Assembly: GCA_016932045.1 (NCBI GenBank)
Contig: JAFGDO010000001.1
Span: forward strand, 1,014 to 65,013
Length of the DNA stretch: 64,000 nucleotides
Source: Candidatus Dojkabacteria bacterium
GTDB taxonomy: Bacteria > Patescibacteriota > Dojkabacteria > JAHIVN01
Direction of reading: 5' to 3'
Shown here: positions 1,843 to 59,606 of the stretch, one piece after another
Position numbering within the stretch: position 1 is the stretch's first letter
Layout of the letters: every line of letters starts with the position of its first letter
Notes under the pieces: model-generated
Seen by the model: the letters and a program-made list of their open reading frames with translations, nothing else
Told to the model about the DNA's origin: nothing
Database searches by the model: none
Translations under genes and position numbers: made by a program

Positions 1843-3651
1843 TTACCAAGGAGTCTCACCCTTTACAGCAGTCACATAGTTCATACCTTTATAAATACCA
1901 GCAAGCTTTCCTACCGGGACAAAAATACCCCAGTATAGACTTGCCTGTCCAACTGTTGTTGTAGGATTCGCATAAGTTGTCTTTGGACAGTTCAATTCGG
2001 CTTCAACATCAGAACCTGTCAGGGCCACCCCACTTCCATAAGCAGTACTTGGGGCTAAAGCATAATGCTGCTGACCGACTACTATACTATCACCGGTACA
2101 TGAAGGTGTGCTTACATTATCACAGTCCATATCATCGCCTTTCAAGTTTGTATCTAGAACCACATTTCCTGTTCCTGAAACTACTACTGTATCTGCACAT
2201 GTTGCATCCCCTGTACCTTCCGAGTAAGAACCATAGTTAAGAGTACCAACGTCAAGATCAAGAGCTGTTAGACTATTCACTTCAGTTGGAGTAACCGACT
2301 CAGTATTGCCTTGTGCAGTGTCATCGTCTGTTGCCTGCATAGTTGCATACCATTCATCATCTGTCCATGTTGTTCCTGTATCAGTAGGATCTGCATGATA
2401 GTAAATCGTATTTACAACTGTGCACTTATATCCTGCAGTTGCATCTGTATTCTCTCTGTCTGTCTTTGTGCCTGTACAAGTCTCAACTCCTGAATCATAC
2501 ACACATGAAAGAAGAGGATAACAGCTGTCTCGATCTTCTTCACCCGCAGCATCGCACGAATCAAATGTACCCCCAGCCGTTGATTTATATAAACTAACCT
2601 TCACATTGCCCCCAGTGTTCACATCCTGACAGTTATTGCTGTCAGTAATTATTGCATCTATATATACAGTTTCTGTACTATTTGTAGAACTCTCATCAAG
2701 ATCTAGACTTCCGCCAGTAACTGTAATAGTTACAGTATTCACAGTCGGAGCTACATTGTTTACTGTAAATGTAGCTGATCTTGTTGCCGGAGTAGATTCT
2801 AGATTATGACCGTCATACATATATGGATATACATCATAACTAGCATCCTGTATAACCGCTGGCACAGGATAATTACATTCTAATGTTCCCGGTGATGTAA
2901 CACCAGTTGATGAACATAGAGTCGTTCCTGTACAACCTCCTGAAGTAGCACCTGCGGTTTTACAAACGTATAGACTTACAGTATCAGCTGTACCACCAGC
3001 ATCGTCATACTCTGTATACGTTGCCGTAAATGTTGCTGTTCCTCCTGGATTTGCAGAAGGTGAAGTTAGACCATCAAATGTTGGTTTATGGTTTACATAG
3101 AATGGTGACTCTGTACCATCTGAAGCAGTACCCTGACTGGCTGCTGAACATGACCCGCCGACAATTGCATCACATGCAAATGCATACCATGCCTCAGTTT
3201 CACTATTTCCCGACTGTTGTCCGCCACCGTCTGTTTGCTGAATTGCAGAAGTCGTGCAACTATTAGATGCAGCGCTTGCAGCCGAAGTATCATCTCTGCA
3301 CCATCTATTTCCTGAACCGCCATTACATTCCGGAGCACTAGTTCCATTGTGTGTTGGTGCATTACCGTTCTTACAAATAATCAGAAACCAGTTATCACCA
3401 TTATCATCGGAAGCCGTACCCTGGAAAGTAACTGTAGCTCCTACATTAGTCGGAGCTGCAGCAGTTGAGGCTACAGTCTCTCCCATAGCAGAAAAATTTG
3501 GAGCTTCATTTGATACACTTACCTGAGTTTCTTTTGGCTCAGCGGCTTGTGTATTTACTCTAAGTTTTGTGATTGCCAAAAACATCAAAACAATCCCCAA
3601 AGCTCCTATAGCAAGAATCTTTAGGGCTTTTAATTTGTCTTTGATTAACAT
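1843..3651 (-). CDS. Large Thr/Gly/Ser/Cys-rich secreted surface protein with an N-terminal signal anchor.
   Basis: N-terminal TM or signal (LKILAIGALGIVLMFLAI). More than 35 Cys and long Thr/Gly/Asp-rich tracts typical of extracellular adhesin or S-layer-associated proteins. No recognisable enzymatic motif. Confidence 0.55.
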   Translation of the reverse strand: MLIKDKLKALKILAIGALGIVLMFLAITKLRVNTQAAEPKETQVSVSNEAPNFSAMGETVASTAAAPTNVGATVTFQGTASDDNGDNWFLIICKNGNAPTHNGTSAPECNGGSGNRWCRDDTSAASAASNSCTTSAIQQTDGGGQQSGNSETEAWYAFACDAIVGGSCSAASQGTASDGTESPFYVNHKPTFDGLTSPSANPGGTATFTATYTEYDDAGGTADTVSLYVCKTAGATSGGCTGTTLCSSTGVTSPGTLECNYPVPAVIQDASYDVYPYMYDGHNLESTPATRSATFTVNNVAPTVNTVTITVTGGSLDLDESSTNSTETVYIDAIITDSNNCQDVNTGGNVKVSLYKSTAGGTFDSCDAAGEEDRDSCYPLLSCVYDSGVETCTGTKTDRENTDATAGYKCTVVNTIYYHADPTDTGTTWTDDEWYATMQATDDDTAQGNTESVTPTEVNSLTALDLDVGTLNYGSYSEGTGDATCADTVVVSGTGNVVLDTNLKGDDMDCDNVSTPSCTGDSIVVGQQHYALAPSTAYGSGVALTGSDVEAELNCPKTTYANPTTTVGQASLYWGIFVPVGKLAGIYKGMNYVTAVKGETPW

Positions 3652-5019: not shown

Positions 5020-7104
5020 ATGAGAAAACTTCTTTCACAAATTTTTCCCTCGGTTTTTATTTTCTCTTTATTTTTAATAATTCCTTTGTTTTTCCCTCAA
5101 AACACTAAAGCGTATGATCAACTCGGAGAAGGGGTCTGTGAGTGCAATTCCTGCAGCGACTGCACATCAGCTCTTGAAGATGATACTAATTGTACGACTA
5201 CAGTAAGACTTACTGTAGATATTCTTGATGAACAAGCAAGATGCATTGATCACCCTGCTGGTAATGACAAAACCTTCGACTGCCAAAACCATACTATAGA
5301 TGGAACCGATAATGATATAGGTATTGGAATCAGCGGGACTTCTGGAGGCAATAATATTACGATTCAAAACTGTTTTGTAAATGATTTTCAAGAAGGTATT
5401 GTAGTTTACGATGGCTCCACATATGTCATAACTTCTAATACTGTATCTTCCTGTTTATTTGGTATCGGCGCCTATCGAAATAGTAATGTAACTATCTCGG
5501 GAAATACTGCAAATCTGAATGATTATTTTGGAATACATACCATTGAAAATACTTTAGCATCAATTACCGGAAATACTGTCACCAATACTACTGCTGAACT
5601 AGGTCCGGCATCTTATTATATCAGTCAATATTCCAATGGATCTTGGAAAGGGATTGCAGTTGAACACTTCACAACTCAATATAAGACCAAATCATTCCTT
5701 GCTCATGAAGATTCAAACGAGTTGAAACTCAGATTTGTTCAGAAAAATATAGATTTCGGCGATATAGAAAGCATACAGCTTTATGCCTGCGGGACATTTA
5801 TCAGTCCAAAATATGCACGATATTTAGATACTGGCGAATCTGTTCTTGAAGATATACTCTATAATGATTTAAATGTAGTTGTAGCTCATGAAAAAGAAGT
5901 CGAAATCGCTTGGGATATTCCACTGATGTGTTCATACCCGTACATTGTTTCTCTTAATGCAAATGAATATGGGCAAGGACTGCCAATTCAATCCCCGCAT
6001 TCTCGAGATTCAGAGTTTTACACCTATGAGATAGACTCAAGTCAACACTCAATCAACACGGATGGCGTATTGAATGAAAATGATAAACTGAATATACCTC
6101 AATTTATATCTATGTGGGAACCGACTTCAGGTCATCCGAAAGGAAATACCTTTGTTTATATCAGTAATGATAATAAAAATGTATATATATCTTTTGACAT
6201 AACTTCTGACAATACAAATGAGTATGGGCAGGACTGGATAGAAATTGAGACTTCAGATACAAAAGTGTTTAGAATTGACGACTTCAATGATAAGTACGGG
6301 AAATGCGGCTTCGGAACAACTGATAAAGTTGCTTTTAAACATCAAATGTGCGAATTTGCAATTCCAAAAGAAGAATTTCATAACTCCGATATATCATTTA
6401 AGGTTAGATATTATGGTACTGGATCAGCTGGTGGAGCAGGAACTGGGATAATCGTTGAAAGCGATAATGCAACTATAAATAATAATGTTGTTACTGATAA
6501 TGCCACCTATGGTATTTTTATAGATAACTCACTCGGGAACACGATAACTTTGAATACAAACACGGTATGTAATAACTATGATACTGATATCATAGGCACG
6601 AATATGGATCCAACCATAACAGGAGATAATAATAAATGCGATACGACTTTTGACTGGAATGATGCGGGAACAACAGGTTGTACTTTTGGATGTGATGATA
6701 CTCCACCGGTTTTTGTTCAACTTCCGGGAAGCACTGAACTGATCAATATAACTGAAGGACAAGTTATAACTGTAAATCCATATACCATAAAAGTAAAACC
6801 TGAGGATGATGAAAGCGGGATCAATAAAGTCGAGATATATATCGATGATGTTTTAATTTGCACTATAACAACACCGGATGCAAATGGGGTATACTCATGC
6901 AATTGGGACACCTCAAAGTATCATTCAACTGTACGTGCCGTAGCTTATAATAACAATAATCTTACAGCACAGATTACAAGGACAGCAAATGTCGCACTTT
7001 CGGAAACAGGACAAAATATTCTCCTAGGCTTAGTATTCGGTTTACTATTAGTTATCGGGACAATCTTAACGAATAGGATAATCCACCAGAAGAAATTACT
7101 ATAA
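5020..7104 (+). CDS. Secreted parallel beta-helix repeat surface protein with C-terminal TM anchor.
   Basis: N-terminal signal peptide. Repeated G-x-G-I-x-x-x-S/N-I-T-I-x-N-C motifs (GIGISGTSGGNNITIQNCFVN...; NATINNNVVTDNATYGIFIDNSLGNTITLNTNTV) typical of NosD/pectin-lyase-fold repeats. C-terminal TM ILLGLVFGLLLVIGTILT. Confidence 0.6.
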   Translation: MRKLLSQIFPSVFIFSLFLIIPLFFPQNTKAYDQLGEGVCECNSCSDCTSALEDDTNCTTTVRLTVDILDEQARCIDHPAGNDKTFDCQNHTIDGTDNDIGIGISGTSGGNNITIQNCFVNDFQEGIVVYDGSTYVITSNTVSSCLFGIGAYRNSNVTISGNTANLNDYFGIHTIENTLASITGNTVTNTTAELGPASYYISQYSNGSWKGIAVEHFTTQYKTKSFLAHEDSNELKLRFVQKNIDFGDIESIQLYACGTFISPKYARYLDTGESVLEDILYNDLNVVVAHEKEVEIAWDIPLMCSYPYIVSLNANEYGQGLPIQSPHSRDSEFYTYEIDSSQHSINTDGVLNENDKLNIPQFISMWEPTSGHPKGNTFVYISNDNKNVYISFDITSDNTNEYGQDWIEIETSDTKVFRIDDFNDKYGKCGFGTTDKVAFKHQMCEFAIPKEEFHNSDISFKVRYYGTGSAGGAGTGIIVESDNATINNNVVTDNATYGIFIDNSLGNTITLNTNTVCNNYDTDIIGTNMDPTITGDNNKCDTTFDWNDAGTTGCTFGCDDTPPVFVQLPGSTELINITEGQVITVNPYTIKVKPEDDESGINKVEIYIDDVLICTITTPDANGVYSCNWDTSKYHSTVRAVAYNNNNLTAQITRTANVALSETGQNILLGLVFGLLLVIGTILTNRIIHQKKLL

Positions 7105-7180: not shown

Positions 7181-8323
7181 TTAACCTTTTTTGTTACTGC
7201 GTTTTTTCCTTATGAAAATTAAGAATATTAAAGCTAGGATAACAATAGCAACAACAAATATGCAAAGTACAGATATACAGCAAATTATGAAACCAGAGGC
7301 GGAATCACTAGTATCTCCACCCGTCTTATTACTTATTATATCCAAGATATTATCATCATCAGAAGATAAAATTGATGATGAAAAACACGAACACCCCGGA
7401 AATGGCGTCTGCATCTCATTACTTGAACACTTTTGCAGACACTTCTCATCCTCAAGCCCACTTGTCCACCAAAGGCCGTCCTCCCTATAATCATATGGAG
7501 TTATATTGCTTTCGTCAAAATCATATTTTGTAAAAGTAAACTGTTCACCTGAACGGACCGTAATTAAATTCCCAGTTTTATTATCAATCTCAACTTCTCC
7601 TTCCAGCACCTTATAAGTATATTCATCACCACTATGTTCAAAGATAAACTCACTTCTTGACCCAGCTACATTATCGAGTGAATCTTCTTCGCCTTTGGTA
7701 AGCTCTCTGTATCTTTCACCGCTCATCAGCCGGGTATATTCTCCCTCATTAATTAAAAACATATTTTTAGCGTTTATCCAGAGTTTTTCAACATTACTCA
7801 ATTCAACATAGTATTTACGCTGCAATATATATGAAGAGAATTCAGTAAATTCACGTAACTGTCCATTTGGAAATAGTATCTCCACGTACTGATCCTCAGC
7901 TACCATGATCATATCTCCTTCATATATAAACGAGCCGACTTCAACTTCGATATATTCACTAGATCCATAGCGTTTGACTTCAAGTTTTCCCGGGACGTCT
8001 TTATGCTCTCTATCAAAAGCATATACATAACCAGAAGCGCCACTTTCATAAAGAACTCTTTCAATGCACTTTCGATCGTAACGGCAGTCTTCACTTACAT
8101 ATGGACAGTAACACGTACATTCTTCTCCTTGAGGACAATTACAGGAGATGAACTTTTGAGCCGCGTCATCGAAATACCCAACACAGTTTTTTGTACAAGG
8201 TGTCTTGCCACAAAGGTAGCAGTCACTAGCTCCCTTAGGACAATCCTCAGCTTTAACCGGGAAATGAATAAAAAGTAAAGATGAAACTATAAATAATAAT
8301 GAAAATATTATTTTTTTATTCAT
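7181..8323 (-). CDS. Cys-rich secreted protein with C-terminal TM anchor.
   Basis: Signal peptide. N-terminal Cys cluster (CPKGASDCYLCGKTPCTKNCVGY...CNCPQGEECTCYCPY). C-terminal TM (FIICCISVLCIFVVAIVILALIFLIFI) followed by RKKRSNKKG. Confidence 0.5.
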   Translation of the reverse strand: MNKKIIFSLLFIVSSLLFIHFPVKAEDCPKGASDCYLCGKTPCTKNCVGYFDDAAQKFISCNCPQGEECTCYCPYVSEDCRYDRKCIERVLYESGASGYVYAFDREHKDVPGKLEVKRYGSSEYIEVEVGSFIYEGDMIMVAEDQYVEILFPNGQLREFTEFSSYILQRKYYVELSNVEKLWINAKNMFLINEGEYTRLMSGERYRELTKGEEDSLDNVAGSRSEFIFEHSGDEYTYKVLEGEVEIDNKTGNLITVRSGEQFTFTKYDFDESNITPYDYREDGLWWTSGLEDEKCLQKCSSNEMQTPFPGCSCFSSSILSSDDDNILDIISNKTGGDTSDSASGFIICCISVLCIFVVAIVILALIFLIFIRKKRSNKKG

Positions 8324-8564
8324 TATTTTAAACTTAAAATAAAGTTACTAGTAATATCAGTATAATCCATAGAATTAGGAATGACAACTGTATTGATTGC
8401 GGAAAGCTTTTTTACTGGGGTACAAACTGAAGGTTAAACGACCGCTACATCCATGAAGCCGATTTTGTGATCAGTAACTATGAAGAGATCATCCCGCCAG
8501 CCTCGAAATACCGCTGACAACCTACTAAACTACATTTACTTCAAGTTCGAATATATGTTACATT

Positions 8565-9521
8565 ATGTCTGGAATGAAACATAATCGGCCCTGGTATAAA
8601 ATTCTCATAATCATCTGTATGTTAATTTCCTTCATACTAGTTGCAGTTACTGGGACCATCAAATCAAAAGGGCTACTGCAACCACTTCACATTCCTTACG
8701 ACTCCATCCCTTTGAATGTGATTTCATCTATCCACGACATTACTGGCCCACTGTTTTTAATTCTCGTCTTATTACATCTAATAATTCAAAGACATTGGTT
8801 CATAGCCCTTTTCAAAATTATTTCCAATCCGAAATCGCTAAAAAACATACTACTTTTTATCTTAGGAGTGATCATAATGGCATTGCTATTCCTTATATAT
8901 AATTCTCTTTCTGGAAGATTCCGGTCATCAGAGGAGATAAAAGAACTTGAGTCAATTGAGATAAAAGAATACGAAGGAGAAGATCTTTCGTCAATTACGG
9001 ATTTTAGGGAAAATTCCATTAAAGGTCCTCAATATATAGATAGAAATACTTACAAACTTAAAATACACGGATTAACAGAAAATGAATTAAATCTTTCTTA
9101 TGGTGAGGTTCTAGAATTTGATTCCTACAAAAAGGTAGTAACCTTACATTGCGTAGAAGGCTGGAGTACGAAAATACTTTGGGAAGGCATTCTTCTTAAA
9201 GATCTTTTTGAAGACGCAAAAGTAAAACAAAATGCAAACACTGTTATATTTCGAGCTTATGACGGCTACTCCACTTCTCTTCCGCTTGATTTTATTTCGG
9301 ACAACGACATCCTGCTTGCCTGTAAGATGAACAACGTCGAACTCCCCACAGAAAGAGGTTTTCCATTCCAGGTTGTTGCTGAGTCAAAATGGGGATACAA
9401 GTGGGTTAAATGGGTAACCGAAATAGAACTTTCAGATGATGAGGATTACAAAGGATACTGGGAAAATGCAGGTTATAATCAAGACGCAGACATAGAGGGT
9501 CCTATTTTTGAAGATAAATAA
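8565..9521 (+). CDS. Sulfite-oxidase-family molybdopterin oxidoreductase (MsrP/YedY-like catalytic domain) fused to an N-terminal His-containing membrane domain.
   Basis: HCVEGWS, YDGYSTSLPLDF, DILLACKMNNVELP, ERGFPFQVVAESKWGYKWVKWVTEIEL match the Oxidored_molyb fold of YedY/MsrP. The N-terminal about 110 aa carry 3 TM segments with several His. Confidence 0.7.
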   Translation: MSGMKHNRPWYKILIIICMLISFILVAVTGTIKSKGLLQPLHIPYDSIPLNVISSIHDITGPLFLILVLLHLIIQRHWFIALFKIISNPKSLKNILLFILGVIIMALLFLIYNSLSGRFRSSEEIKELESIEIKEYEGEDLSSITDFRENSIKGPQYIDRNTYKLKIHGLTENELNLSYGEVLEFDSYKKVVTLHCVEGWSTKILWEGILLKDLFEDAKVKQNANTVIFRAYDGYSTSLPLDFISDNDILLACKMNNVELPTERGFPFQVVAESKWGYKWVKWVTEIELSDDEDYKGYWENAGYNQDADIEGPIFEDK

Positions 9522-9921
9522 TATGAATCAAGATAAAATCAAAGAAAAATACAAAAAGGAATTAACACAAGACCAATATAATATATGTTTCCTCAAGGGC
9601 ACAGAAAAACCTGGAAGTGGAAAATACAACAAACACTTTAAAAAAGGAGTTTACAAATGTGTAGTATGTGGTCAAGAACTATTTAGCTCAGATACTAAAT
9701 TTGATTCAAAAACAGGATGGCCAAGTTTTTTTGAACCAGTTAATAAAAAAGCGGTTGAATATAAAAAGGATTCATCTCTAGGATTGGAGAGAACGGAAGT
9801 CGTATGTTCAAATTGTAAAGCCCACCTTGGCCACGTATTCGACGATGGACCCGAACCTAGCGGAAAACGATTCTGCATAAATTCATTGGCATTAAATTTC
9901 AAAAAGGAACCATTTTTTTAA
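9508..9921 (+). CDS. msrB: Peptide-methionine (R)-S-oxide reductase MsrB.
   Basis: CVVCGQELFSSDTKFDSKTGWPSFFEP and CSNCKAHLGHVFDDGPEPSGKRFCINS are the SelR/MsrB signatures (CxxC...CxxC zinc site, catalytic region). Overlaps the upstream gene by 14 nt (operon). Confidence 0.9.
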   Translation: MKINNMNQDKIKEKYKKELTQDQYNICFLKGTEKPGSGKYNKHFKKGVYKCVVCGQELFSSDTKFDSKTGWPSFFEPVNKKAVEYKKDSSLGLERTEVVCSNCKAHLGHVFDDGPEPSGKRFCINSLALNFKKEPFF

Positions 9922-9933
9922 CTTTATTTTATT

Positions 9934-9947
9934 TTTTACATATAAAT
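9934..9947 (+). promoter_or_regulatory. TTTTACATATAAAT promoter-like 14-mer abutting the start codon (leaderless-type).
   Basis: The identical 14-mer recurs at 11864-11877, upstream of another + strand gene. It contains a TATAAAT (-10/TATA-like) element 0-8 nt from ATG. Confidence 0.3.
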
Positions 9948-10418
9948 ATGAAAAAGGTCATCATCATAGTTGTAGTGTTGCTTGTTGTAGGCTTTGCAGT
10001 GTTTTATGTATTGCAACAACAGAAAGAGGAAGAACAAAGCGACACAAAGACTACTCAAAATCAGGAAACTCAAGAGGAAGAATCCGAGGATACTACTACA
10101 GACGGATACATGGATGTATCTGCCAAAGAGGCCGAGGACCTCATTCAAGATAATCCTGATCTAATCATCATCGATGTGTCACCTAACTACGACGAAGGAC
10201 ACCTTCCTGGTGCAGTTAACTATTATGTAGGGGACGGAAGCCTTGATCGAGCGATACCAACGCTTGATAAGAATAGTAAATACCTTGTTTACTGCCACGT
10301 TGATAGTGCTTCAATTTCTGGAGCAAATATCCTGATCAGTGCAGGATTTACAAATGTTTATAGACTTGAAGGCAACTACCAAGCCTGGGTAGATGCAGGT
10401 TATGATATCGAAAAATAG
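9948..10418 (+). CDS. Membrane-anchored rhodanese-domain sulfurtransferase.
   Basis: N-terminal TM, acidic linker, then IIIDVSPNYDEGHLPGAVNYY...YLVYCHVDSASISGANILISAGFTNVYRLEGNYQAWVDAGY. This is a rhodanese fold with the active-site Cys in the CHVDSAS loop. Confidence 0.75.
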   Translation: MKKVIIIVVVLLVVGFAVFYVLQQQKEEEQSDTKTTQNQETQEEESEDTTTDGYMDVSAKEAEDLIQDNPDLIIIDVSPNYDEGHLPGAVNYYVGDGSLDRAIPTLDKNSKYLVYCHVDSASISGANILISAGFTNVYRLEGNYQAWVDAGYDIEK

Positions 10419-10463: not shown

Positions 10464-11699
10464 TCAATTTACTTTTATTCCTTCTTCGGGTTCAAACTCT
10501 ATAAATTCTATCTTTCCTTTAAATCTTTTTTCGTAGGCTCGCTTCATGTCCTGTTTGAACGATTCAAGACTGCAGCGTTTTACTAAAGCTAAAGCAATGG
10601 CCGAAAAGCCTCCACCCATATTCCTTATCCCAACCACTCCTCCCTGTTTTTTCCCAAATTGATAAAGGAATGTTAGCTCCGGGGTCTTGTCGTCTAAGTT
10701 GTATAATTTAAGTGCACTTAATCCTGACTGTGTGAGCAGCTTTCCGAATCTGTCAATCTGATCTTTCTCCAGTGCTTCAACTGATTCCAAAACCCTATCG
10801 TTTTCATACACTACATGCTCTACTCTTCTTGCCATAGTAGGGTTAAATAGCTTGAGTTTACTTTTGTATTTCCTAAAATCTGAAACTGAAACATCTCGAA
10901 GGCTGGTTATTTTTCTATCTAAGGTTTCTTTCCAAAAAGGAATACTATCTTCACACATTTGTCTTCTTTCAGGATAGCCACTTTTTCCAAGCTGCCTTTT
11001 TACACTCTTATCAACAAGGATGACAAAAACAACATCGTGTTTCTCAAGACTTGAAGGAATTAGCTTAACACTCGATACTGGTAAATCTCCTTTTGACCTA
11101 AAATCCATCAGAACAAATTTTTTCCTCTTGGCAAAAGATATTGTTCCTTGATCAAGAAATCCGCATGGAGATTTTACATATTGATTCTCGGCATTCTGAC
11201 AGATTAATGCTATCTTATATGGATCAATTTTTCTCTTGCACAAACTCAAAAGACCATATGCCATGGCAAGTTCAAATGCAGCTGAACTTGAGACTCCACC
11301 TGATGTTGGAACATCACTATCAATCAATATATCAGCTCCTTTAATTTTGTATCTATTCTTAAGCAAATGTACGACAACACCTTTTGCATAATCAGCCCAA
11401 TCATTCTTCGTGCTTCTTCTTATGTTTTCTTGTATTTTAAATGTGATAGGGGCCTTTGTTGGATAATTTAAAGAATAGATCCTGACGAGTTTATCCTTCC
11501 TCTTTCTAAATGCAGCAATTAATGTTCTTGAAATAGCACATGAGAGTGCAAATCCCTGATTATAGTCAGTATGATTGCCGATGATTTCAGCTCTGCCAGG
11601 GGAAGAAACAATTAAATCCGGATAGATTTTGTAGATCTTATGAAATTTAGAATCTATCTCGTACGCTTTCTCTTTATTGAGATCATTTAACTTTTTCAT
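10464..11699 (-). CDS. GHMP-family sugar kinase, galactokinase-like.
   Basis: GRAEIIGNHTDYNQGFAL matches the galactokinase N-terminal signature GRxNLIGEHxDY. PTSGGVSSSAAFELA is the GHMP ATP-binding motif. Confidence 0.75.
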   Translation of the reverse strand: MKKLNDLNKEKAYEIDSKFHKIYKIYPDLIVSSPGRAEIIGNHTDYNQGFALSCAISRTLIAAFRKRKDKLVRIYSLNYPTKAPITFKIQENIRRSTKNDWADYAKGVVVHLLKNRYKIKGADILIDSDVPTSGGVSSSAAFELAMAYGLLSLCKRKIDPYKIALICQNAENQYVKSPCGFLDQGTISFAKRKKFVLMDFRSKGDLPVSSVKLIPSSLEKHDVVFVILVDKSVKRQLGKSGYPERRQMCEDSIPFWKETLDRKITSLRDVSVSDFRKYKSKLKLFNPTMARRVEHVVYENDRVLESVEALEKDQIDRFGKLLTQSGLSALKLYNLDDKTPELTFLYQFGKKQGGVVGIRNMGGGFSAIALALVKRCSLESFKQDMKRAYEKRFKGKIEFIEFEPEEGIKVN

Positions 11700-12850: not shown

Positions 12851-13345
12851 ATGAAAAATAAATATATATCCATTACAATAATATCTATATTAATGATCAC
12901 AGGTGCAGGTCTAGCCTCATATTTCATTTTCAGTAATCAAAATAAAACTGAAACCTATACAGCTTCAACAAGCACTGTATCTACTACTACACAAGATAAT
13001 GATACACAAAACAATATTACAGACTCGGAAGGAAATGATGCCCAAACTGCTAGTGAACAAACAATAGTAATGTATCATAACGGCACAGGCCCCATGTGTA
13101 TTGAAGCTTTAGATTTCTTTGAAGAACAGGGAATTGAATTCAAGGAGCATCTCAATACAGAAGAAGGCTTTAAAGATTTACTAAGTTCAGAAAAAGAAAG
13201 GTTTAATGGCGTAAGCGAAGGAGTCTCAGATTCTTTTGGATACTACCCAATTATCATAATTGAAACCAGAGCTTTTTCAGGTTTTGACGATAATGTTAAG
13301 AGTGAGATTCTATCAATATTAAATGCAGCCCCTGCTGAATCCTAA
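12851..13345 (+). CDS. Membrane-anchored/secreted protein with a Thr-rich linker and an ArsC/Spx-like (glutaredoxin-fold) domain.
   Basis: Signal anchor, TASTSTVSTTTQDNDTQNN linker, then IVMYHNGTGPMCIEALDFFEEQGIEFKEH, which resembles the YHNxxC...L..GIE pattern of ArsC/Spx-family thioredoxin folds. Weak call. Confidence 0.35.
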   Translation: MKNKYISITIISILMITGAGLASYFIFSNQNKTETYTASTSTVSTTTQDNDTQNNITDSEGNDAQTASEQTIVMYHNGTGPMCIEALDFFEEQGIEFKEHLNTEEGFKDLLSSEKERFNGVSEGVSDSFGYYPIIIIETRAFSGFDDNVKSEILSILNAAPAES

Positions 13346-15156
13346 AACAACTTTGTAAAAATATTGAGCAGATTATAAACAAGAAATGCCATCACCCAAG
13401 CAACTGCAAATGAGGTAACAATCCTGGCAATCAAAAACTTCCAACTCTTAACCTCATTCTTTATAGCTGAACAGGTTGCTATACACGGTGTATAGAGATT
13501 TGCAAAAACGAGAAATGAAATTGCCTGAAAGGGAGTGAGGGCTCTAAGTAATGCATTTTGCAAACCTCCTTCGCCTACACCAAATAGTACGCCAAAAAGC
13601 CCAATGAATATCTCCTTTGCTAAGAAACCAAAGATAAGCGAAACAGAAAATTCCCAAAAACCAAAACCCAGGGGATTAAATAAAAGAATGATAGAGTTAC
13701 CGATTTGCCCAAGCAGACTGTCGCTTGAACCATACTCAACCCCAAGCGGAAAACTTGAAAGAAACCATATTCCGATGATTGCTAGAAATATGATAGAACC
13801 TGCCTTTTTGATAAATAAAACTGTCTGAGCCCAGGATCTTTTTAGAATATTTTTTATAACTGGCTTTCTATACGGTGGTAGTTCAAGTAATAAAGTTGTA
13901 TCACCTGTTTTATAAACAAATTTTGAAAGTATAACACCAACGACTAACCCGACTAAAATGTTCAATAAATACAAAATAGTAACAACAGAAATACCGATAC
14001 TGGGAAAAAATGTTATTGCCAAATATATATTTAAAGGCAAACAAGCACTACATGGTATAAAGGGAACAAGAAACATAGCTATCAATTTTTCTTTTTTATT
14101 ATGGATTGTACGAGTTGCAAGTACAGCAGAAACGTTACATCCGAAACCAAGTATTAATGGTATAAATGATCGACCTGAGATTCCAATTTTTTCAAACAGT
14201 CGATCAACAAGAACAACCGTACGAGATAAATATCCCGTATCCTCAAACAGGTATATAAAAATATAGAAAATTAGAATTATGGGTGTAAAAGAAAGTACTG
14301 CTCCCAATCCTCCTATGACCCCATCCGTTATGAAGGATCTCAAAATAGGTGAAGGATTAAGAGAAGTGATTATTTCTCCAATCAGAGAAAACAGGTATTC
14401 CACTCCATCAACAAGAGGTAAAGAAATCTTAAAAGTCGCAAGAAACATTAGATACATTAATAAAAGAAGAATTGGAAAGGCTGTAAACTTATTTAGAAAG
14501 ATCGAATCGATCTTATACAAAATTCTTTCTGATTTTGTCTTTACAAGTGGAGTTATACTCTCATTTAGAAATTGCCGAGCTTTCTTGTGATTTATTTCTT
14601 TATCCGGTTTTAGAAATTTGTGAATATACTTGGGGACTTTATAATCTTTTTTACTGATTCTTACGATTTTGTCGATAAGCTCACATTTATTCTCACCTGT
14701 ATGCGCCTCAATATTTACTATAGGAATTTTAAGTATCTTCTCAATCTTCTGATATTCAATTTTTACACCCCTTCTTTTAGCCTCTTTATTGAAATTGAAT
14801 GCTAGTAATAATTTCTTCCCGAGCACAAGAAGTTCCATAGTCAAAAACAAATTCCTTACGAGCGTATTAACATCTACAATTTGAACTACGATATCTAACT
14901 CTCTACTTAACATGAAATTCCTAGCTATTTCTTCCTCTTCTGAAAATGGTGCTATACTGTAAATTCCTGGCAAATCAACAAATCTGATTTCTTTTCCCTT
15001 ATAATTTACTTTTCCCTCGCATTTTTGCACAGTCTTCCCCGGCCAGTTCCCAACGTGATATGATGCCCCAGTTAAACAATTTAAAAGAGAGGTTTTTCCT
15101 GTATTTGGATTTCCAATGAGACCAACAACAATTGTTTTAGTTTTAATATTATTCAC
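13342..15156 (-). CDS. feoB: Ferrous iron transporter FeoB (G-domain plus permease); probable GTG start.
   Basis: GNPNTGKTSLLNCLTG (G1), VDLPGIYS (G3), then multi-TM permease with the conserved gate region. The start codon at 15156 is GTG on the minus strand and overlaps feoA. Confidence 0.9.
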   Translation of the reverse strand: MNNIKTKTIVVGLIGNPNTGKTSLLNCLTGASYHVGNWPGKTVQKCEGKVNYKGKEIRFVDLPGIYSIAPFSEEEEIARNFMLSRELDIVVQIVDVNTLVRNLFLTMELLVLGKKLLLAFNFNKEAKRRGVKIEYQKIEKILKIPIVNIEAHTGENKCELIDKIVRISKKDYKVPKYIHKFLKPDKEINHKKARQFLNESITPLVKTKSERILYKIDSIFLNKFTAFPILLLLMYLMFLATFKISLPLVDGVEYLFSLIGEIITSLNPSPILRSFITDGVIGGLGAVLSFTPIILIFYIFIYLFEDTGYLSRTVVLVDRLFEKIGISGRSFIPLILGFGCNVSAVLATRTIHNKKEKLIAMFLVPFIPCSACLPLNIYLAITFFPSIGISVVTILYLLNILVGLVVGVILSKFVYKTGDTTLLLELPPYRKPVIKNILKRSWAQTVLFIKKAGSIIFLAIIGIWFLSSFPLGVEYGSSDSLLGQIGNSIILLFNPLGFGFWEFSVSLIFGFLAKEIFIGLFGVLFGVGEGGLQNALLRALTPFQAISFLVFANLYTPCIATCSAIKNEVKSWKFLIARIVTSFAVAWVMAFLVYNLLNIFTKLF

Positions 15157-15379
15157 CTTCTACCTTTATCTCGATCTTCTGAGCTAAATTATTCCTTACA
15201 GCAATATATGTATTCATTATCTCATAAATTTTTGGACTTCTCATTGGCGATTCCCTTGTCATTATAATGTCAACTCCCTCAATCAACCCCATACTATGAA
15301 GTCTCTCCCTAATGCTGTGAGGTAAATTTATTTTAACGACTTTTGCTTTTTGATTGCTTTTTAACTCATTTAGATTCAT
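15149..15379 (-). CDS. feoA: FeoA family protein.
   Basis: 76-aa SH3-like FeoA pattern (LxxLKxGQKAxVxxI...RLxxMGLxxGxxI) directly upstream of, and overlapping, feoB. Confidence 0.7.
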   Translation of the reverse strand: MNLNELKSNQKAKVVKINLPHSIRERLHSMGLIEGVDIIMTRESPMRSPKIYEIMNTYIAVRNNLAQKIEIKVEGE

Positions 15380-16254
15380 AATCTTTCCATAAGCTTATTA
15401 TAAATCTTTTGAATTTCATCACAAGCTTTTATATTACTTTCCACAACAGGCCTCAACTCCACAATACTTTTAACAACTTTTTTATCATATGAAATACTTC
15501 CCAGATAATTTTCATCTGCAAACTTCTTAATCTTTACTGAGATCTGTTTATTTAAATCACATTTATTTAAAACTATCCCGTAAGGAATTTCAAAATGTGT
15601 TACTACTGATAAAACTCTCTTAAGATCGGAAAAAGATGAAAGTGAAGGTTCAGCAACAGCTATTATGTAATCAGATCCCTTTATAGAAGCTATGATCGGA
15701 CAGCCAATACCAGCTGCTGCATCTTGAATAATAATCGAATGCTTTTCCTGAATTTGTTTCGCATAAGTTCTGATCTCTACAACTGCTTCTCCTGATTCGG
15801 CTTCCCCAGGTTTTATCTGTCCCTGTATTACTGGAAATCCCCATTTTGTATCAAATCTGGTCAACAAACAGTTTTTTACAGGTTTAAGCTTTATTGCATT
15901 GAATGGACAGACTATCTCGCACAAACCGCAACCTTCGCATTTATAGGATACTAGTCGTACCTCTTTCTTTTTGCTCAGTTCTAAGGCTTGGAAATTGCAA
16001 GCTGATATGCAAGCACCGCACCTTTTACATTTAGTCTTGTCAATAAAGGGTTTACTTGTTGTGCTAATTTCTTTGGAGAACTTTGCATTCTGGGGATTAG
16101 AAGTATCTATGCCCAGCCATAAAGCAAGATTTGGCGCGTCAACATCACAATCTATAGCTACAAGTTCATTATTTTTTGAAAAAAGAATGGCAAGAGACGA
16201 TGCCAGTATACTCTTACCAACACCACCCTTTCCTGAAACAACGGTAATTCGCAT
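15376..16254 (-). CDS. MinD/ParA-superfamily P-loop ATPase with an inserted 2x[4Fe-4S] ferredoxin domain (COG1149-type).
   Basis: Deviant Walker A GKGGVGKS. Two CxxCxxCxxxCP motifs (CKRCGACISACNF; CEGCGLCEIVCPF). Confidence 0.8.
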   Translation of the reverse strand: MRITVVSGKGGVGKSILASSLAILFSKNNELVAIDCDVDAPNLALWLGIDTSNPQNAKFSKEISTTSKPFIDKTKCKRCGACISACNFQALELSKKKEVRLVSYKCEGCGLCEIVCPFNAIKLKPVKNCLLTRFDTKWGFPVIQGQIKPGEAESGEAVVEIRTYAKQIQEKHSIIIQDAAAGIGCPIIASIKGSDYIIAVAEPSLSSFSDLKRVLSVVTHFEIPYGIVLNKCDLNKQISVKIKKFADENYLGSISYDKKVVKSIVELRPVVESNIKACDEIQKIYNKLMERL

Positions 16255-16271
16255 TTCAAATTTATTTTAAA

Positions 16272-17462
16272 TTATCTTCTGCCCCGGACCCTAACCCCTC
16301 TTCTACGTAAGGCTCTTTTAGCATTTTTCCCTATATTCCCGGCTACAACTTCGTCAGCTCCAATAGCTTTAGCAAATCTAACTCCATGCCCTCTTCCTAT
16401 TCTATAATACGGATTCTTTATCTTTTTGCTCAACTTTACCTTTCCTTTCAACTTATCCTCAACTAAATACTCCGGAGCACCAAAGTCATCCACTTGCTTA
16501 TCTTCTCTATAGGGATAGATAGTCCGCCTTCCTTTTTTCCTAATATCAATACTCGGATAAATTTTATTCCCATGCTCAAAAAACTTTTGTACTTTACCTT
16601 CTCTTGACATACGAAATCTCTCATCTGTTCCTTTTACTTGAATTACAACATGTTCTACACTATTTATCTTCTGAATTATTAGCGATTGTAAATCAGAAAT
16701 AATTTGATCCGCTTTCCCTACCTTTACTTCAGATGGAAGAGTAATGGTCAATTCAACAAATATCCTAGCACCTACTTTTCTTGATTTAATCTCAGTTAAA
16801 TTCACCTGTTGTTTTTCGCATATTTTTCTGATCTGATTTTCCACTTCCAGATCAGCAACATCAAGCACGCCCTCTATCACTTCCTTGCCTAATGGTATTA
16901 AGGATAGAATTATATAAATTCCTAAAACCAACGCTACTATACTATCAAGTGCAGGTATATATCTTGCAAAAATAATTCCTAAAAGTACTCCAATAGACGA
17001 AAAAACATCTATCTGAGAATGCTTCCCATCTGTTACTAGAGAGACACTATTCTCTGCCTTACCAGTTTTTATTTTTAAATATGACATAATTCCACACACA
17101 ACCGAAGAAAAAGCCATTATCCCAAAGGCCAAGACATTTACCTGTAGATCAAAATTCTTCTCTAGAAGGCTAACTATTGCATCATAAATAATAGTCATAC
17201 TTGAAATCAGAACCATTAGAAAAACTAGTAAACTTGAGACTGTTTCAGTTCGATAAAGTCCGTAGGGAAATTTTTTTGTTGGAGGTTTCTCTGATAATTT
17301 TACCCCTAGAAATACCAAAAAAGATGATAATATATCTGATAGAGAATCAATTCCCGAGGCAATTATTGAATTACTTTTTGCTACTAATCCTATACCTATC
17401 TTGGATACAGTTAACAACACATTTACAAATGTACTTAGTATAGAGACTTGTTTCCTATTCAC
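16272..17462 (-). CDS. Cation diffusion facilitator (CDF) transporter with a C-terminal extension resembling a NifX/NifB-type FeMo-cofactor-binding domain.
   Basis: Six TM CDF core with SLSDILSS and HSQIDVFSSIG motifs. The C-terminal ~100 aa (GHGVRFAKAIGADEVVAGNIGKNAKRALRRRGVRV) look like the C-terminal half of a Nitro_FeMo-Co domain. Confidence 0.7.
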   Translation of the reverse strand: MNRKQVSILSTFVNVLLTVSKIGIGLVAKSNSIIASGIDSLSDILSSFLVFLGVKLSEKPPTKKFPYGLYRTETVSSLLVFLMVLISSMTIIYDAIVSLLEKNFDLQVNVLAFGIMAFSSVVCGIMSYLKIKTGKAENSVSLVTDGKHSQIDVFSSIGVLLGIIFARYIPALDSIVALVLGIYIILSLIPLGKEVIEGVLDVADLEVENQIRKICEKQQVNLTEIKSRKVGARIFVELTITLPSEVKVGKADQIISDLQSLIIQKINSVEHVVIQVKGTDERFRMSREGKVQKFFEHGNKIYPSIDIRKKGRRTIYPYREDKQVDDFGAPEYLVEDKLKGKVKLSKKIKNPYYRIGRGHGVRFAKAIGADEVVAGNIGKNAKRALRRRGVRVRGRR

Positions 17463-17478
17463 AACGAAAAAAAATTAA

Positions 17479-18315
17479 TTAATCTAATAGATGTATTAAA
17501 GACTCATTATGCAAAAAATTCCCGGATGAATAATCTTTTGCTAACACTTTATTGTAAAGTATTCTTACACTTATCTGCGTTTTATTTTCTCTTGCAATAT
17601 TTATAATTTTTTTCATATCTCCAACGTCATATTGATTTGCTACAACTTCGCTTCTGATTTTCATAACTTTTAAAACTTTTAATATTATATTTAGATCGTG
17701 TGCACCAACAGGTGTCGGTTCTGTAACGGCATACGCTTTCTCAACACCTTCTAAAGCTGCCATTACCGTACAATGCGAACCTGCTGCTGTATCATAAATT
17801 ATCAAATCAAAATTATGCATCATGGTTTCAACAAATTGTTTTGTTTCCTTTACTACAGGACTCGTTTCTCTTATTCCTGGTTTACTTATACCTGTTACTA
17901 AAGTAAAATTATTCTTGATTTCATTTAAATATATCTCCCCATTCTCTACTTTTTTCTTTATTATTGCCTTTTCTGGACATATTGTCCAACATACACCGCA
18001 AGAGGAGCACAGCTCTTCGTTTATTTGCGGGAATTTCCCTTTAGGTTGGAATATTGCATTTGATCTACAGCTTTTCACACACATGCCACACTTGGTGCAC
18101 TTGCTTTTCAATATTTCCGGATAATATGTGTAAGTCTTCTTTAAAGAATCTTCTAGTTTCTTAATACCAAGAATGATATAGTCATTAGGACACTCAACAT
18201 CACAATCAACTAAAAGTACTTTTTTTCTCCTAGAAATTTCCTTAAGTGCAAATAGGATAGAAAAGGTAGATTTTCCTGTTCCTCCTTTCCCCCCGGTAAC
18301 TGCTATTTTTTTCAC
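17479..18315 (-). CDS. Second MinD/ParA-like P-loop ATPase with 2x[4Fe-4S] ferredoxin insert (COG1149 paralog).
   Basis: GGKGGTGKST Walker A. CTKCGMCVKSCRSNAI and CSSCGVCWTICPEKAI ferredoxin motifs. Confidence 0.8.
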   Translation of the reverse strand: MKKIAVTGGKGGTGKSTFSILFALKEISRRKKVLLVDCDVECPNDYIILGIKKLEDSLKKTYTYYPEILKSKCTKCGMCVKSCRSNAIFQPKGKFPQINEELCSSCGVCWTICPEKAIIKKKVENGEIYLNEIKNNFTLVTGISKPGIRETSPVVKETKQFVETMMHNFDLIIYDTAAGSHCTVMAALEGVEKAYAVTEPTPVGAHDLNIILKVLKVMKIRSEVVANQYDVGDMKKIINIARENKTQISVRILYNKVLAKDYSSGNFLHNESLIHLLD

Positions 18316-18652: not shown

Positions 18653-20107
18653 TTACAATAAACCAACTAACATTGCTATGCCTAAACAAGCAATTATTAA
18701 ACCAGCAACTAAATGTAGTATTCTAATCTTTTTATCCTTCCACTCAGATATATCTTCTACCTTTGAAATACCAAAATAGACAATACAAGTAATGAGCAAC
18801 ATAGGGGAAATAAAAATAAGATTGTATATAATAAGATGTGGTATGGATTTTAATGTATCCTCAAATGATAACATACCGCCTAAGATTATATATGGGCCTA
18901 TCGTACATGGAAGAAGAAACAAAGTGACGAATAAACCCACACCAAATGCCCCATTAGGCGAAGTGATACCTTCTATAATCTTTTTGATCTTAGGTCTTAA
19001 AGACATCGGCATTTCTGTACCCAAGCTCCCCGGCTTATAACTTAGAAAATCTTTAATCTGCAAAACACCAAGAATAATTGCCATAATCCCAAAGAATTTG
19101 TAAAGGATCAGCCTTATATTTGTGATAGCTTGAACAATCTTAAAGAATCGAATAATCACTAATCCATATACCATGTACATTATAAAAACTGAAAATGAAA
19201 AGGCTAATCCTGCAAGTATGATATTTTTCTTATTCTTTGGATTATAAGAAATAATGGCTATCAGCATCATAGTTAAGACAGCAAGAGCGCATGGATTTAC
19301 AGCATCAACCGCAGCAAGTGAAATAGTCTTTCCTAACAATACTTTTGTCTGTTCAATTTCTCCGCTTGAATTATTTTCTTCTTGTTCATTGCTAATTTCA
19401 ACACTTTCACCTTTAACCGAAGGTCCGTTCCACTGCAATATCCAGCCTTCAACCTTTGCAGCATTATCAAAATGAACAGATGAGCCTGAAAGTTGCACAT
19501 CTTGCTCCTCAATTATTTGAATACTATTCTGTTCAAAAAGTCCATTTATATCTACACCTGAAATGAATTCTTTAATTATTTCGTTACTTCCATTTTGATT
19601 CTGCTCTGTCTTAATTGCTACTCTATCTTTTGTCCAAACTTTCGGCTTACCAGAAAGATCCGAAATATTTCCGATTGAAACACTTGATCCATCGCTTAAG
19701 GGTAATTTATTTCCAGCATGATTTTCATATTCCTCTCTAAAAGACGATAAAATCGGTTTATCACCAACAATATTTTTATCTTTATCGAAAATAACAAGAG
19801 GAATATGATATCCACAATTATAGTTTGTATTGTATTCATCTATGAATATAGCATTTTGACTTTCCTGATAAACTTCATATTCAACAACGACAAGATCCGG
19901 ATACTCATGCAGCCAGTCTTTTAGTAATATAGAATCAACCTTAGCACAATGCGGGCAGCCAATACCCGTAAAATAAACTACAAAGGTAGGCTCATTAACT
20001 TGAGCTGAAACATTAGTTATAGAAATAAATGCAAATATAACTATTGTGAGAGGGATAAGAAAAGTTCTTTTTATTAATTCCTTGAACTTATCAATTATTC
20101 TTTTCAT
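18653..20107 (-). CDS. Secreted thioredoxin-like domain fused to a CcdA/DsbD-type transmembrane thiol-disulfide transporter.
   Basis: Signal peptide. VVYFTGIGCPHCAKV (CxxC thioredoxin motif). C-terminal 6-8 TM with AVNPCALAVL and LLPCTIGPYI, the two conserved Cys of the CcdA/DsbD beta domain. Confidence 0.7.
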   Translation of the reverse strand: MKRIIDKFKELIKRTFLIPLTIVIFAFISITNVSAQVNEPTFVVYFTGIGCPHCAKVDSILLKDWLHEYPDLVVVEYEVYQESQNAIFIDEYNTNYNCGYHIPLVIFDKDKNIVGDKPILSSFREEYENHAGNKLPLSDGSSVSIGNISDLSGKPKVWTKDRVAIKTEQNQNGSNEIIKEFISGVDINGLFEQNSIQIIEEQDVQLSGSSVHFDNAAKVEGWILQWNGPSVKGESVEISNEQEENNSSGEIEQTKVLLGKTISLAAVDAVNPCALAVLTMMLIAIISYNPKNKKNIILAGLAFSFSVFIMYMVYGLVIIRFFKIVQAITNIRLILYKFFGIMAIILGVLQIKDFLSYKPGSLGTEMPMSLRPKIKKIIEGITSPNGAFGVGLFVTLFLLPCTIGPYIILGGMLSFEDTLKSIPHLIIYNLIFISPMLLITCIVYFGISKVEDISEWKDKKIRILHLVAGLIIACLGIAMLVGLL

Positions 20108-30189: not shown

Positions 30190-30840
30190 AGAGTTGTTGG
30201 TTCAGGGCCTCTGCCCTGAACCAGTTCTGCTACTTGTTGTATCAGGGCCTTCACCTTGAACCATATCCTACTACTCTACAACCACATCTATTACCGAATT
30301 ATCGTTATTTATATAGTTTCTCGCTGAAGAATACCTCCAATCTTCCTCCTTTTCAACATACCATTTAGCAACTGGGTTCTCATGAATATAGTTTAACTTC
30401 TGTTCAAAAAAATTAACACTTTCAACGATTTCTGGCCAATTACCATTCTGCCAAACCTTGAAATTTTGCCCAACCTTTCTTCCTAAATCACATAATGTTT
30501 TAAAGCAAAGCTTATTCCCATTTCTTTCGAGAATGGATTTTATCTCTTTTGCCGTATAACTTTTAAAACTACGAACAAATTTAATCATATCAGAACATTG
30601 CGCTATTATATGAATATGATCGTACATAATCACATAGGCATTAATTTTTAAATCCAGCTTCCTTTGATAGAACTTTAAAGATCGAATAACTACCTCGCAA
30701 TACCTGTCTTGAGAAAAAAGGTTAAACCATTTCATAATAGAAAATGTTAAGAAGTATGTTCGATCTTTTAGACATGCAGAAATCCTTGTAGATGACATAT
30801 CATCACTTTTAAATTCAGGGCAGGAGCCCTGAACTAACTA
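30190..30840 (-). mobile_element. IS200/IS605-type element: HUH (Y1) transposase flanked by GC-rich subterminal hairpins.
   Basis: Hairpins: GGTTCAGGGC-CTCT-GCCCTGAACC (30198-30221), a degenerate copy at about 30239-30262, and TTCAGGGC-AGGA-GCCCTGAA (30814-30833). They bracket the transposase ORF. Confidence 0.7.
30271..30798 (-). CDS. IS200-like / REP-associated tyrosine (HUH) transposase.
   Basis: MYDHIHIIAQ (HuH motif) and C-terminal catalytic Tyr region (WRYSSARNY), about 175 aa as in the Y1_Tnp family. Confidence 0.8.
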   Translation of the reverse strand: MSSTRISACLKDRTYFLTFSIMKWFNLFSQDRYCEVVIRSLKFYQRKLDLKINAYVIMYDHIHIIAQCSDMIKFVRSFKSYTAKEIKSILERNGNKLCFKTLCDLGRKVGQNFKVWQNGNWPEIVESVNFFEQKLNYIHENPVAKWYVEKEEDWRYSSARNYINNDNSVIDVVVE

Positions 30841-32226: not shown

Positions 32227-32251
32227 AGCAACATCAAAAATGAATGGTTTA

Positions 32252-59582: not shown

Positions 59583-59606
59583 TCTTAGAAAATCATTGAG
59601 ATAATA

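Follow-up and report, generated by a model that had tools for sequence, protein, structure and literature searches.

A DUF4405 cytochrome module fused to a SUOX-fold molybdopterin domain in Candidatus Dojkabacteria: a predicted transmembrane electron wire encoded beside msrB

In Escherichia coli, MsrP-MsrQ (YedY-YedZ) pairs a membrane b-type cytochrome with an extracytoplasmic molybdenum enzyme of the SUOX fold, as two polypeptides and in an oxidative-stress context. Archaeal homologs of MsrP occur without any MsrQ, and their electron donor is unknown (PMC8773360). Sco3746-type fusions (Tooke et al. 2017, PMC5449189) are single polypeptides with five transmembrane domains (TMDs), histidines on TMD2-4 predicted to hold two b hemes and a C-terminal extracytoplasmic molybdenum-cofactor (Moco) domain; they are dual substrates of the Sec and twin-arginine translocation (Tat) pathways and have been described as distant fused counterparts of MsrQ/MsrP. 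DUF4405 proteins were found by experiment in 2024 to bind heme b, which was shown for an Oscillospiraceae DUF4405 protein and FezC only; they structurally resemble MsrQ and PepSY-type cytochromes, and FezC, a ferrosome protein and DUF4405 relative, has been modelled as a homodimer whose heme sites are proposed to arise by homodimerisation (PMC11334425). Here we analyze ORF1, a 318-residue protein in which a DUF4405 module and a SUOX-fold molybdopterin domain share one chain. Its open reading frame (ORF) lies next to msrB in a 64,000-nucleotide stretch (the window) of a metagenome-assembled genome (MAG) of Candidatus Dojkabacteria (WS6; Patescibacteria, or Candidate Phyla Radiation, CPR), contig JAFGDO010000001.1.

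Architecture of the ORF1 fusion

We read ORF1 as a self-contained transmembrane electron wire joined to a molybdoenzyme, which would do MsrQ-MsrP-like work with different parts; we hold this reading at even confidence. The features of the protein are the following:

8565-9521, plus strand: ORF1, 318 residues, DUF4405 cytochrome-b module, signal-anchor transmembrane (TM) helix and SUOX-fold molybdopterin domain
8595-8786, plus strand: TM1-TM2, residues 11-74, DUF4405 half-cytochrome (Pfam PF14358)
8733-8735 and 8775-8777, plus strand: predicted heme-b ligands His57 (outer side) and His71 (inner side), from conservation
8841-8906, plus strand: TM3, about residues 93-114, strongly hydrophobic helix carrying the catalytic domain across the membrane
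8970-9518, plus strand: extracytoplasmic SUOX-fold catalytic domain, residues 136-318 (PF00174, Foldseek, hhalign)
9150-9152, plus strand: predicted molybdenum ligand Cys196, at a beta-hairpin tip

Membrane module: The PF14358 match covers ORF1 residues 15-78 and model positions 2-66 of 66 (33.8 bits, cutoff 26.7). The same domain is found in most full-length homologs, several of which also score as cytochrome b561 (PF01292). An AlphaFold2 model built with 72 homologs as input (mean predicted local distance difference test score 82.9) has long TM helices at residues 10-33, 50-74 and 89-118, two short connecting helices, and a disordered linker (117-130) after which the beta-rich catalytic domain is predicted confidently. 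His57 is kept in 72 and His71 in 71 of the 72 full-length fusion homologs. Both residues lie on TM2, 14 positions apart, and no other histidine is conserved across this set. A first-pass annotation, made by a model from the letters alone, had placed an MsrP-like Moco domain and a His-bearing three-TM segment on one polypeptide, and the DUF4405 and Oxidored_molyb matches and the three modelled helices bear this out. The alternative it had allowed for, an N-terminus that is a simple signal anchor, fails against a DUF4405 score above the Pfam threshold and two invariant histidines. Its proposal of an MsrQ-type membrane partner falls: an hhalign comparison of the family profile with E. coli MsrQ returned a probability of 0.6%, and the module belongs to DUF4405 instead.

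DUF4405 membership and the two invariant histidines together predict a heme-b cytochrome. Because both histidines sit on one helix, a single chain would contribute just one ligand to each heme, and two bis-His hemes would require two or more chains; by analogy with FezC, we infer that such hemes would form in an ORF1 dimer. The likeness extends to the shared Pfam family, to the histidines being the most conserved positions, and to the count of two per chain, which fits the FezC homodimer parallel. The characterized DUF4405 protein differs from ORF1 in having six TMs and four histidines and in its link to ApbE flavinylation systems, and a connection between DUF4405 and molybdoenzymes is not discussed in that report, where the word 'molybdopterin' occurs 0 times (PMC11334425).

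Topology: Loop 2 is strongly basic, with a net charge of +4.0 versus +1.5 in loop 1. Of the three helices, TM3 ranks highest in hydrophobicity (mean Kyte-Doolittle value 2.40). This charge bias and the hydrophobic TM3 indicate an N-in topology with the catalytic domain outside. Unfused relatives from bacteria and archaea have, ahead of the catalytic domain and at the position that corresponds to TM3, either a lipoprotein signal peptide (LAAC, LAGC, LSGC) or a signal anchor. These signals independently confirm the predicted outward-facing orientation and mark TM3 as a putative Sec-type anchor.

Catalytic domain: The PF00174 (Oxidored_molyb) match spans residues 157-299 and model positions 6-169 of 169, with 122.1 bits against a cutoff of 24. 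Foldseek returned SorA (2blf, E 1.4e-14) and E. coli YedY/MsrP (1xdy, E 1.8e-13) as the best matches, followed by SoxC, sulfite oxidase and nitrate reductase; structures of PruR, which binds pterin without molybdenum, matched much more weakly (E ~1e-7). An hhalign comparison with E. coli MsrP gave a probability of 97.8% at 26% identity, and in that alignment the molybdenum-ligand motifs coincide, HCVEGWS in ORF1 and RCVEAWS in MsrP (shared CVExWS), as does a common K.G[YF]K..K motif. Cys196, which aligns with the MsrP cysteine, is present in 72 of 72 homologs and sits between strands 187-195 and 201-210 of the AlphaFold2 model. In the same homologs, Tyr235 and Lys275-x-Gly-Tyr-Lys279 are invariant or nearly so, Arg148 is conserved and Tyr304 is invariant. 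Over residues 203-305 the best sequence and fold match is SorA, with Tyr304 aligned to SorA Tyr236, and Arg148 falls by spacing at the position of SorA Arg55 and chicken sulfite oxidase Arg138; the Arg148 and Tyr304 equivalences depend in part on an assumed sulfite oxidase and SorA numbering. The predicted active site is thus an MsrP/SorA hybrid, and its substrate is not readable from sequence. A molybdopterin cofactor with Mo (or W) is predicted for the domain. With the MsrP equivalog model NF003767 (cutoff 207) the domain reaches 54.7 bits, less than the 73.5 bits with the SorA NCBIfam model, a score itself far under that model's cutoff of 600; the first-pass label of an MsrP-type enzyme therefore does not hold at the equivalog level.

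Fused and split forms: The family has more than 7,997 homologs, and a scan of one genome per species gave at least 550 relatives. Full-length fusions occur across Patescibacteria (Shapiro-, Pace-, Falkow-, Uhr-, Moranii- and Nealsonbacteria, WWE3), where the fusion is a standard, common form. The first-pass annotation had called the arrangement unusual, which neither this distribution nor the published five-TM heme-Moco fusion (PMC5449189) allows. Short forms are found in DPANN archaea, Bathyarchaeia, Thermoplasmatota, methanogens, Dehalococcoidia, Anaerolineae and others, and the catalytic domains are 55-70% identical between bacteria and archaea. In at least six DPANN loci the DUF4405 module is an ORF of its own, with 83-96 residues and two TMs:

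Split DUF4405 ORFs, by locus: L066 6161-6439; L038 1995-2264; L022 9721-9990; L019 9730-9987; L078 1437-1727; L017 5813-6064

These ORFs retain an HDW...H motif except in L017, which has lost the second histidine, and each lies directly upstream of a lipoprotein-signal SUOX gene that it abuts or overlaps. The exception is a weak seventh case, L079, with the DUF4405 ORF downstream. Seen against the split DPANN genes, the CPR protein would consist of a half-cytochrome, a former signal anchor (TM3) and the enzyme, and on this sequence evidence the fused and split pairings tie the DUF4405 and SUOX parts together functionally.

Comparison with described systems: ORF1 and MsrP-MsrQ share the pairing of cytochrome and enzyme, the oxidative-stress context and both motifs given above, and they differ in five respects. 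ORF1 is one polypeptide rather than two; its membrane part is a DUF4405 module with three TMs and two histidines, whereas MsrQ is of the ferric-reductase type and has no detectable similarity to it; its catalytic domain has ~190 residues against ~290 in MsrP; it lacks a Tat signal such as KRRQVLK of E. coli MsrP; and Arg148 replaces a tyrosine of MsrP. Sco3746-type proteins resemble ORF1 in joining, on one chain, TM helices that bear histidines to an extracytoplasmic Moco domain at the C-terminus, but, comparing the two sets by description, have five TMDs with histidines on three of them where ORF1 has three TMs with both histidines on one helix. In Sco3746, moreover, the last TMD is weakly hydrophobic and comes right after a conserved twin-arginine, and Tat dependence is proven; among the ORF1 fusions only 9 of 72 have a twin-arginine, and no helix is more hydrophobic than the last one. 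SorA and sulfite oxidase (group 2 of the sulfite oxidase family) share with ORF1 the Arg and Tyr at the SorA Arg55 and Tyr236 positions; ORF1 differs from them in lacking a dimerization domain and a cytochrome c or b5 partner, and its residues after the molybdenum-ligand cysteine are of the MsrP type. PruR is likewise a small, Sec-exported SUOX fold, but it is a regulator without the molybdenum-ligand cysteine or the long hairpin, both of which the ORF1 family keeps (PMC11194511).

Gene context of ORF1 and its relatives

Three close-packed ORFs on the same strand (ORF1, msrB and a rhodanese gene) occupy 8565-10418, where the first-pass annotation had placed them, and are bounded by two genes of opposite orientation:

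7181-8323, minus strand: Cys-rich surface protein gene, upstream neighbour, divergent to ORF1
8324-8564, plus strand: intergenic region between ORF1 and the divergent gene, where the promoter of the three-gene unit is presumed to lie
9508-9921, plus strand: msrB, cytoplasmic methionine-(R)-sulfoxide reductase (start TTG 9508 or ATG 9523)
9948-10418, plus strand: membrane-anchored, outward-facing single-domain rhodanese (PF00581; NCBI MBN2015211.1)
10464-11699, minus strand: galactokinase gene, downstream neighbour, convergent

Scans of the unit for promoters and terminators gave weak sigma-70-like matches that did not rise above shuffled sequence. Six window proteins are identical to NCBI entries within MBN2015207-MBN2015245. 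The exact 318-residue ORF1 product is absent from the public protein collection; a Logan assembly product, P0001, has 214 residues and starts inside TM3, and automated annotation may truncate the gene. NCBI labels the fusion architecture 'molybdopterin-dependent oxidoreductase'.

The second ORF is MsrB, with a SelR (PF01641) score of 171 bits and a TIGR00357 score of 177.9 bits (cutoff 113), a catalytic cysteine in RFCINS (9874-9876), zinc-site CxxC pairs at residues 51-54 and 100-103, and no N-terminal hydrophobic segment. The 14-nt overlap with ORF1 in the first-pass annotation stands with the TTG start at 9508, which has GAGGG 8 nt upstream, and disappears with the NCBI start at ATG 9523 (MBN2015210.1, 132 residues), 1 nt past the ORF1 stop. 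Under either start the two genes are tightly packed.

The link to methionine-sulfoxide reductases, also proposed at first pass, is real and recurrent. Neighbourhoods were sampled at 80 genome loci and 80 metagenome loci (160 in all, many metagenome contigs being short). Of 22 fused genes sampled, 8 are directly flanked, on one side or the other, by a gene for MsrB or for an MsrB-MsrA fusion, or by a pair of adjacent ORFs homologous to msr, and no other neighbour recurs across lineages beside these 22. MsrB lies near a family gene in 9-11 of the 80 genome loci and 9 of the 80 metagenome loci (~10% of the 160). Beside the short forms, the recurrent neighbours are genes for rubrerythrin or ferritin-like proteins, desulfoferrodoxin (superoxide reductase), Fe/Mn superoxide dismutase and thioredoxin-reductase-like proteins, as well as a DOMON protein and small cytochrome-b561-like membrane proteins. 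The neighbourhood of the family is one of oxidative stress.

In five Dehalococcoidia loci (L043, L044, L046, L062, L072), a secreted DOMON protein and a His-containing membrane protein of ~86 residues always precede the SUOX gene, 100-400 nt upstream. The pair may be an alternative electron-delivery route in that group.

In the product of the third ORF, a TM anchor at the N-terminus is followed by a low-complexity, acidic linker rich in Q, E and T and then by a rhodanese domain (PF00581, 58.4 bits, cutoff 22.2) with Cys116 (10293-10295) in CHVDSAS, in keeping with the TM-anchored rhodanese annotated at first pass. The protein scores under every NCBIfam equivalog cutoff and so falls into no assigned subfamily. 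Its inclusion in a repair module is not sustained: rhodanese homologs adjoin a family gene in the window and in only two loci, L003 (52% identity) and L047 (60% identity), which amounts to 2 of 80 genome and 0 of 80 metagenome loci. Such sporadic linkage (the window and 2 of 160 loci) leads us to reject the rhodanese as a conserved module member; it is an occasional accessory, perhaps in surface thiol or persulfide chemistry. The L047 gene (10634-11035), from a Woesearchaeota MAG and also beside a SUOX gene, is the homolog 60% identical to the Dojkabacteria one, and this resemblance suggests cross-domain transfer of the rhodanese-SUOX pair between DPANN and CPR.

Proposed mechanism, rival readings and cofactor supply

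The mechanism we favor, on a judgement that is evenly balanced, is that a dimeric, di-heme ORF1 wire feeds an extracytoplasmic methionine-sulfoxide reductase that complements the cytoplasmic MsrB. In a pair of ORF1 copies, one heme b would be held between His57 and His57' on the outer side and a second between His71 and His71' on the inner side, following the FezC model. Electrons from a cytoplasmic donor would then cross the membrane through the hemes to the molybdenum centre. A flavin, ferredoxin or NAD(P)H-dependent reductase would be a likelier donor than quinol, because CPR bacteria lack respiratory electron transport chains (PMC7507113). The substrate of the molybdenum centre would be methionine sulfoxide in proteins that are secreted or displayed on the surface, with free sulfoxides as a possible addition, while MsrB would do the same job for Met-R-SO in the cytoplasm.

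Several observations weigh against this mechanism. The catalytic domain fails the NCBIfam MsrP model, its C-terminal half is closer to the sulfite dehydrogenase SorA, and it retains by position the SorA- and sulfite oxidase-type Arg148 and Tyr304, where MsrP has no Arg at the aligned site. It has no Tat motif although Moco insertion is normally cytoplasmic. Genes for Moco and heme biosynthesis are missing from the window and nearly so from 1.78 Mb of family-flanking DNA. The three-gene operon contains no candidate reductase gene. Gene neighbourhood is indirect evidence, and the related loci are not fully independent. The mechanism is predicted from sequence, model and context.

Its SorA-like features could instead point to an extracytoplasmic dehydrogenase of sulfite or another sulfur oxyanion, whose electrons would run via the hemes into the cell and on to an acceptor in the cytoplasm, with the surface rhodanese making or handling sulfite or thiosulfate; we regard this as unlikely. 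The benefit would be detoxification of sulfite, a compound that attacks disulfides in the Cys-rich surface proteins, and perhaps a gain of reducing power as well. SorA being the best sequence and fold match fits this idea, as do Arg148 and Tyr304 at the positions of SorA Arg55 (chicken sulfite oxidase Arg138) and Tyr236, the rhodanese that adjoins in the window, L003 and L047, and the Cys-rich secreted proteins of the window. However, the residues after the molybdenum-ligand cysteine are of the MsrP type (CVEGWS) and not of the sulfite oxidase type with its second substrate Arg, the recurrent neighbours are msr genes and genes for defence against reactive oxygen species rather than sulfur metabolism, rhodanese adjacency is rare, no inward electron acceptor is evident, and the residue equivalences depend in part on assumed numbering.

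The missing Tat signal and the nature of the host, a CPR bacterium, bear on whether the domain contains Mo or W. Moco insertion usually takes place in the cytoplasm, and for that reason all characterized extracytoplasmic molybdoenzymes, to our knowledge, use Tat. The five-TM heme-Moco fusion Sco3746 is also Tat-dependent (PMC5449189). A simple regular expression for RR before the last TM (not TatFind) found the Tat motif in 10 of 183 family proteins and 9 of 72 fusions, and none before TM3 of the window protein; the motif KRRQVLK is present in E. coli MsrP. Lipoboxes occur in at least 42 of the 183. Pfam annotation of ~50 ORFs in the 64-kb window found no Moa/Moe/Mog, heme-biosynthesis or Tat genes. 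One radical-SAM/SPASM ORF (59607-60515) gave a weak tblastn match to MoaA, limited to the radical-SAM core; its Pfam architecture is unlike MoaA and has no Mob_synth_C match, and we discarded it as MoaA. When 1.78 Mb (the window and the 160 loci) were searched by tblastn for homologs of E. coli MoaA-E and MoeA/B, the search recovered only a MoaB-like ORF in L029, in a sample per genome too small to prove absence. Nothing specific was found in the literature on Moco or methionine-sulfoxide repair in CPR or DPANN.

These observations could suit a family that carries no Moco at all, binding a simpler PruR-like ligand (a pterin, for example) or using Cys196 as a redox-active thiol, with the hemes in another redox or sensing role. 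The export signals are of the Sec type (at least 42 lipoboxes, RR in 10 of 183), TM3 is strongly hydrophobic, Moco genes are not seen nearby in the CPR and DPANN hosts, and PruR, Sec-exported and Mo-free, is a detectable fold relative (E ~1e-7; PMC11194511). We consider this reading rather improbable: PruR lacks the molybdenum-ligand cysteine and the long beta-hairpin, and the ORF1 family keeps both (Cys196 in 72 of 72) along with Tyr235 and the K.GYK..K motif of the MsrP/sulfite oxidase type, while true molybdoenzymes match some seven orders of magnitude better. The family also occurs in Dehalococcoidia, methanogens and Bacillota, which we take to be Moco-proficient.

The catalytic core is under very strong constraint, so the ORF1 gene is not degenerate, and a lack of Moco biosynthesis, which the first-pass annotation had equated with a degenerate gene, would not imply that it is. 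The question of cofactor supply is therefore genuine. The family resides mostly in CPR and DPANN hosts that are thought to make little cofactor, and the loading of a domain predicted to be Tat-less is a puzzle. Possibly these hosts produce no Moco and no heme of their own. In that case, Sec would export the SUOX proteins of this large, highly conserved family in an unfolded state, either as lipoproteins or within the fusion as its C-terminal domain, and Moco and heme would both be acquired on the outer side of the membrane, presumably out of the host or the environment. We judge this improbable; if true, no earlier case would be on record of an extracytoplasmic molybdoenzyme that is independent of Tat or of Moco scavenging by a prokaryote.

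CPR bacteria are auxotrophs, and the family is divergent from MsrP, both of which would suit a broad reductase of S- or N-oxides or other oxidants whose main role is something other than protein repair, for example the scavenging of free methionine sulfoxide or other sulfoxides as nutrients or the detoxification of an oxidant at the cell surface. E. coli MsrP/YedY also reduces dimethyl sulfoxide, trimethylamine N-oxide and free methionine sulfoxide (PMC6211008, PMC7759655). Against this proposal, which we hold to be improbable, stands the one strong signal from gene context, the direct linkage in operons to msr genes of protein repair; nothing else separates it from methionine-sulfoxide repair.

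Other genes of the window and biological meaning

The first-pass annotation had described the surface proteins of this lineage as rich in Cys and Met. The secreted or anchored proteins of the window are Cys-rich (2.7-9.2% Cys in those encoded at 1843-3651, 5020-7104, 7181-8323 and 63070-63756) and not Met-rich. One is a NosD/beta-helix protein, and another, of 228 residues, has VWC/pacifastin-like Cys-knot matches that are unusual for a bacterium. Two DsbD_2/SfLAP-type membrane proteins are encoded at 18653-20107 and 50844-52000, one of them followed by a glutaredoxin-like protein with a signal peptide; the pair looks like an extracytoplasmic thiol-reducing pathway and could serve surface Cys chemistry or the rhodanese.

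Elsewhere in the window, an iron/metal cluster on the minus strand (13342-18315) consists of FeoB followed by two MinD/CbiA-type ATPases, with inserted 4Fe-4S ferredoxin domains, that flank a cation-efflux gene of the CDF family. Also on the minus strand (31834-38122), a 1,956-residue surface protein with CBM96 and many Ig-like domains is encoded directly upstream of an M23 peptidase, and the two may be machinery for host attachment or cell-wall attack. Two adjacent radical-SAM genes (58557-60515), the second with a SPASM domain, may form a peptide-maturation system. A 532-residue protein (41740-43338), 'hypothetical protein' at NCBI, is a 6-phosphogluconate dehydrogenase (Pfam 311 bits) that probably carries an insertion, since the match falls in two stretches. 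A weak IS200-like Y1 transposase match at 30271-30798 is possibly a remnant mobile element.

The fusion architecture is already in Pfam and NCBI, and a functional analogue, Sco3746, is published. The apparent novelty lies in the pairing of DUF4405 with SUOX, which takes a fused form in CPR and a split form in DPANN, together with the strong msr linkage and the Tat-less export. The fused and split arrangements link DUF4405 cytochromes to the SUOX enzyme family and offer a candidate answer to how MsrP-like enzymes are supplied with electrons in archaea and other organisms without MsrQ (PMC8773360). A Tat-less predicted molybdoenzyme in presumed cofactor auxotrophs bears on the way in which episymbionts acquire complex cofactors. 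The system also suggests that ultra-small symbionts with very few redox enzymes invest in the repair of an exposed, Cys-rich surface proteome.

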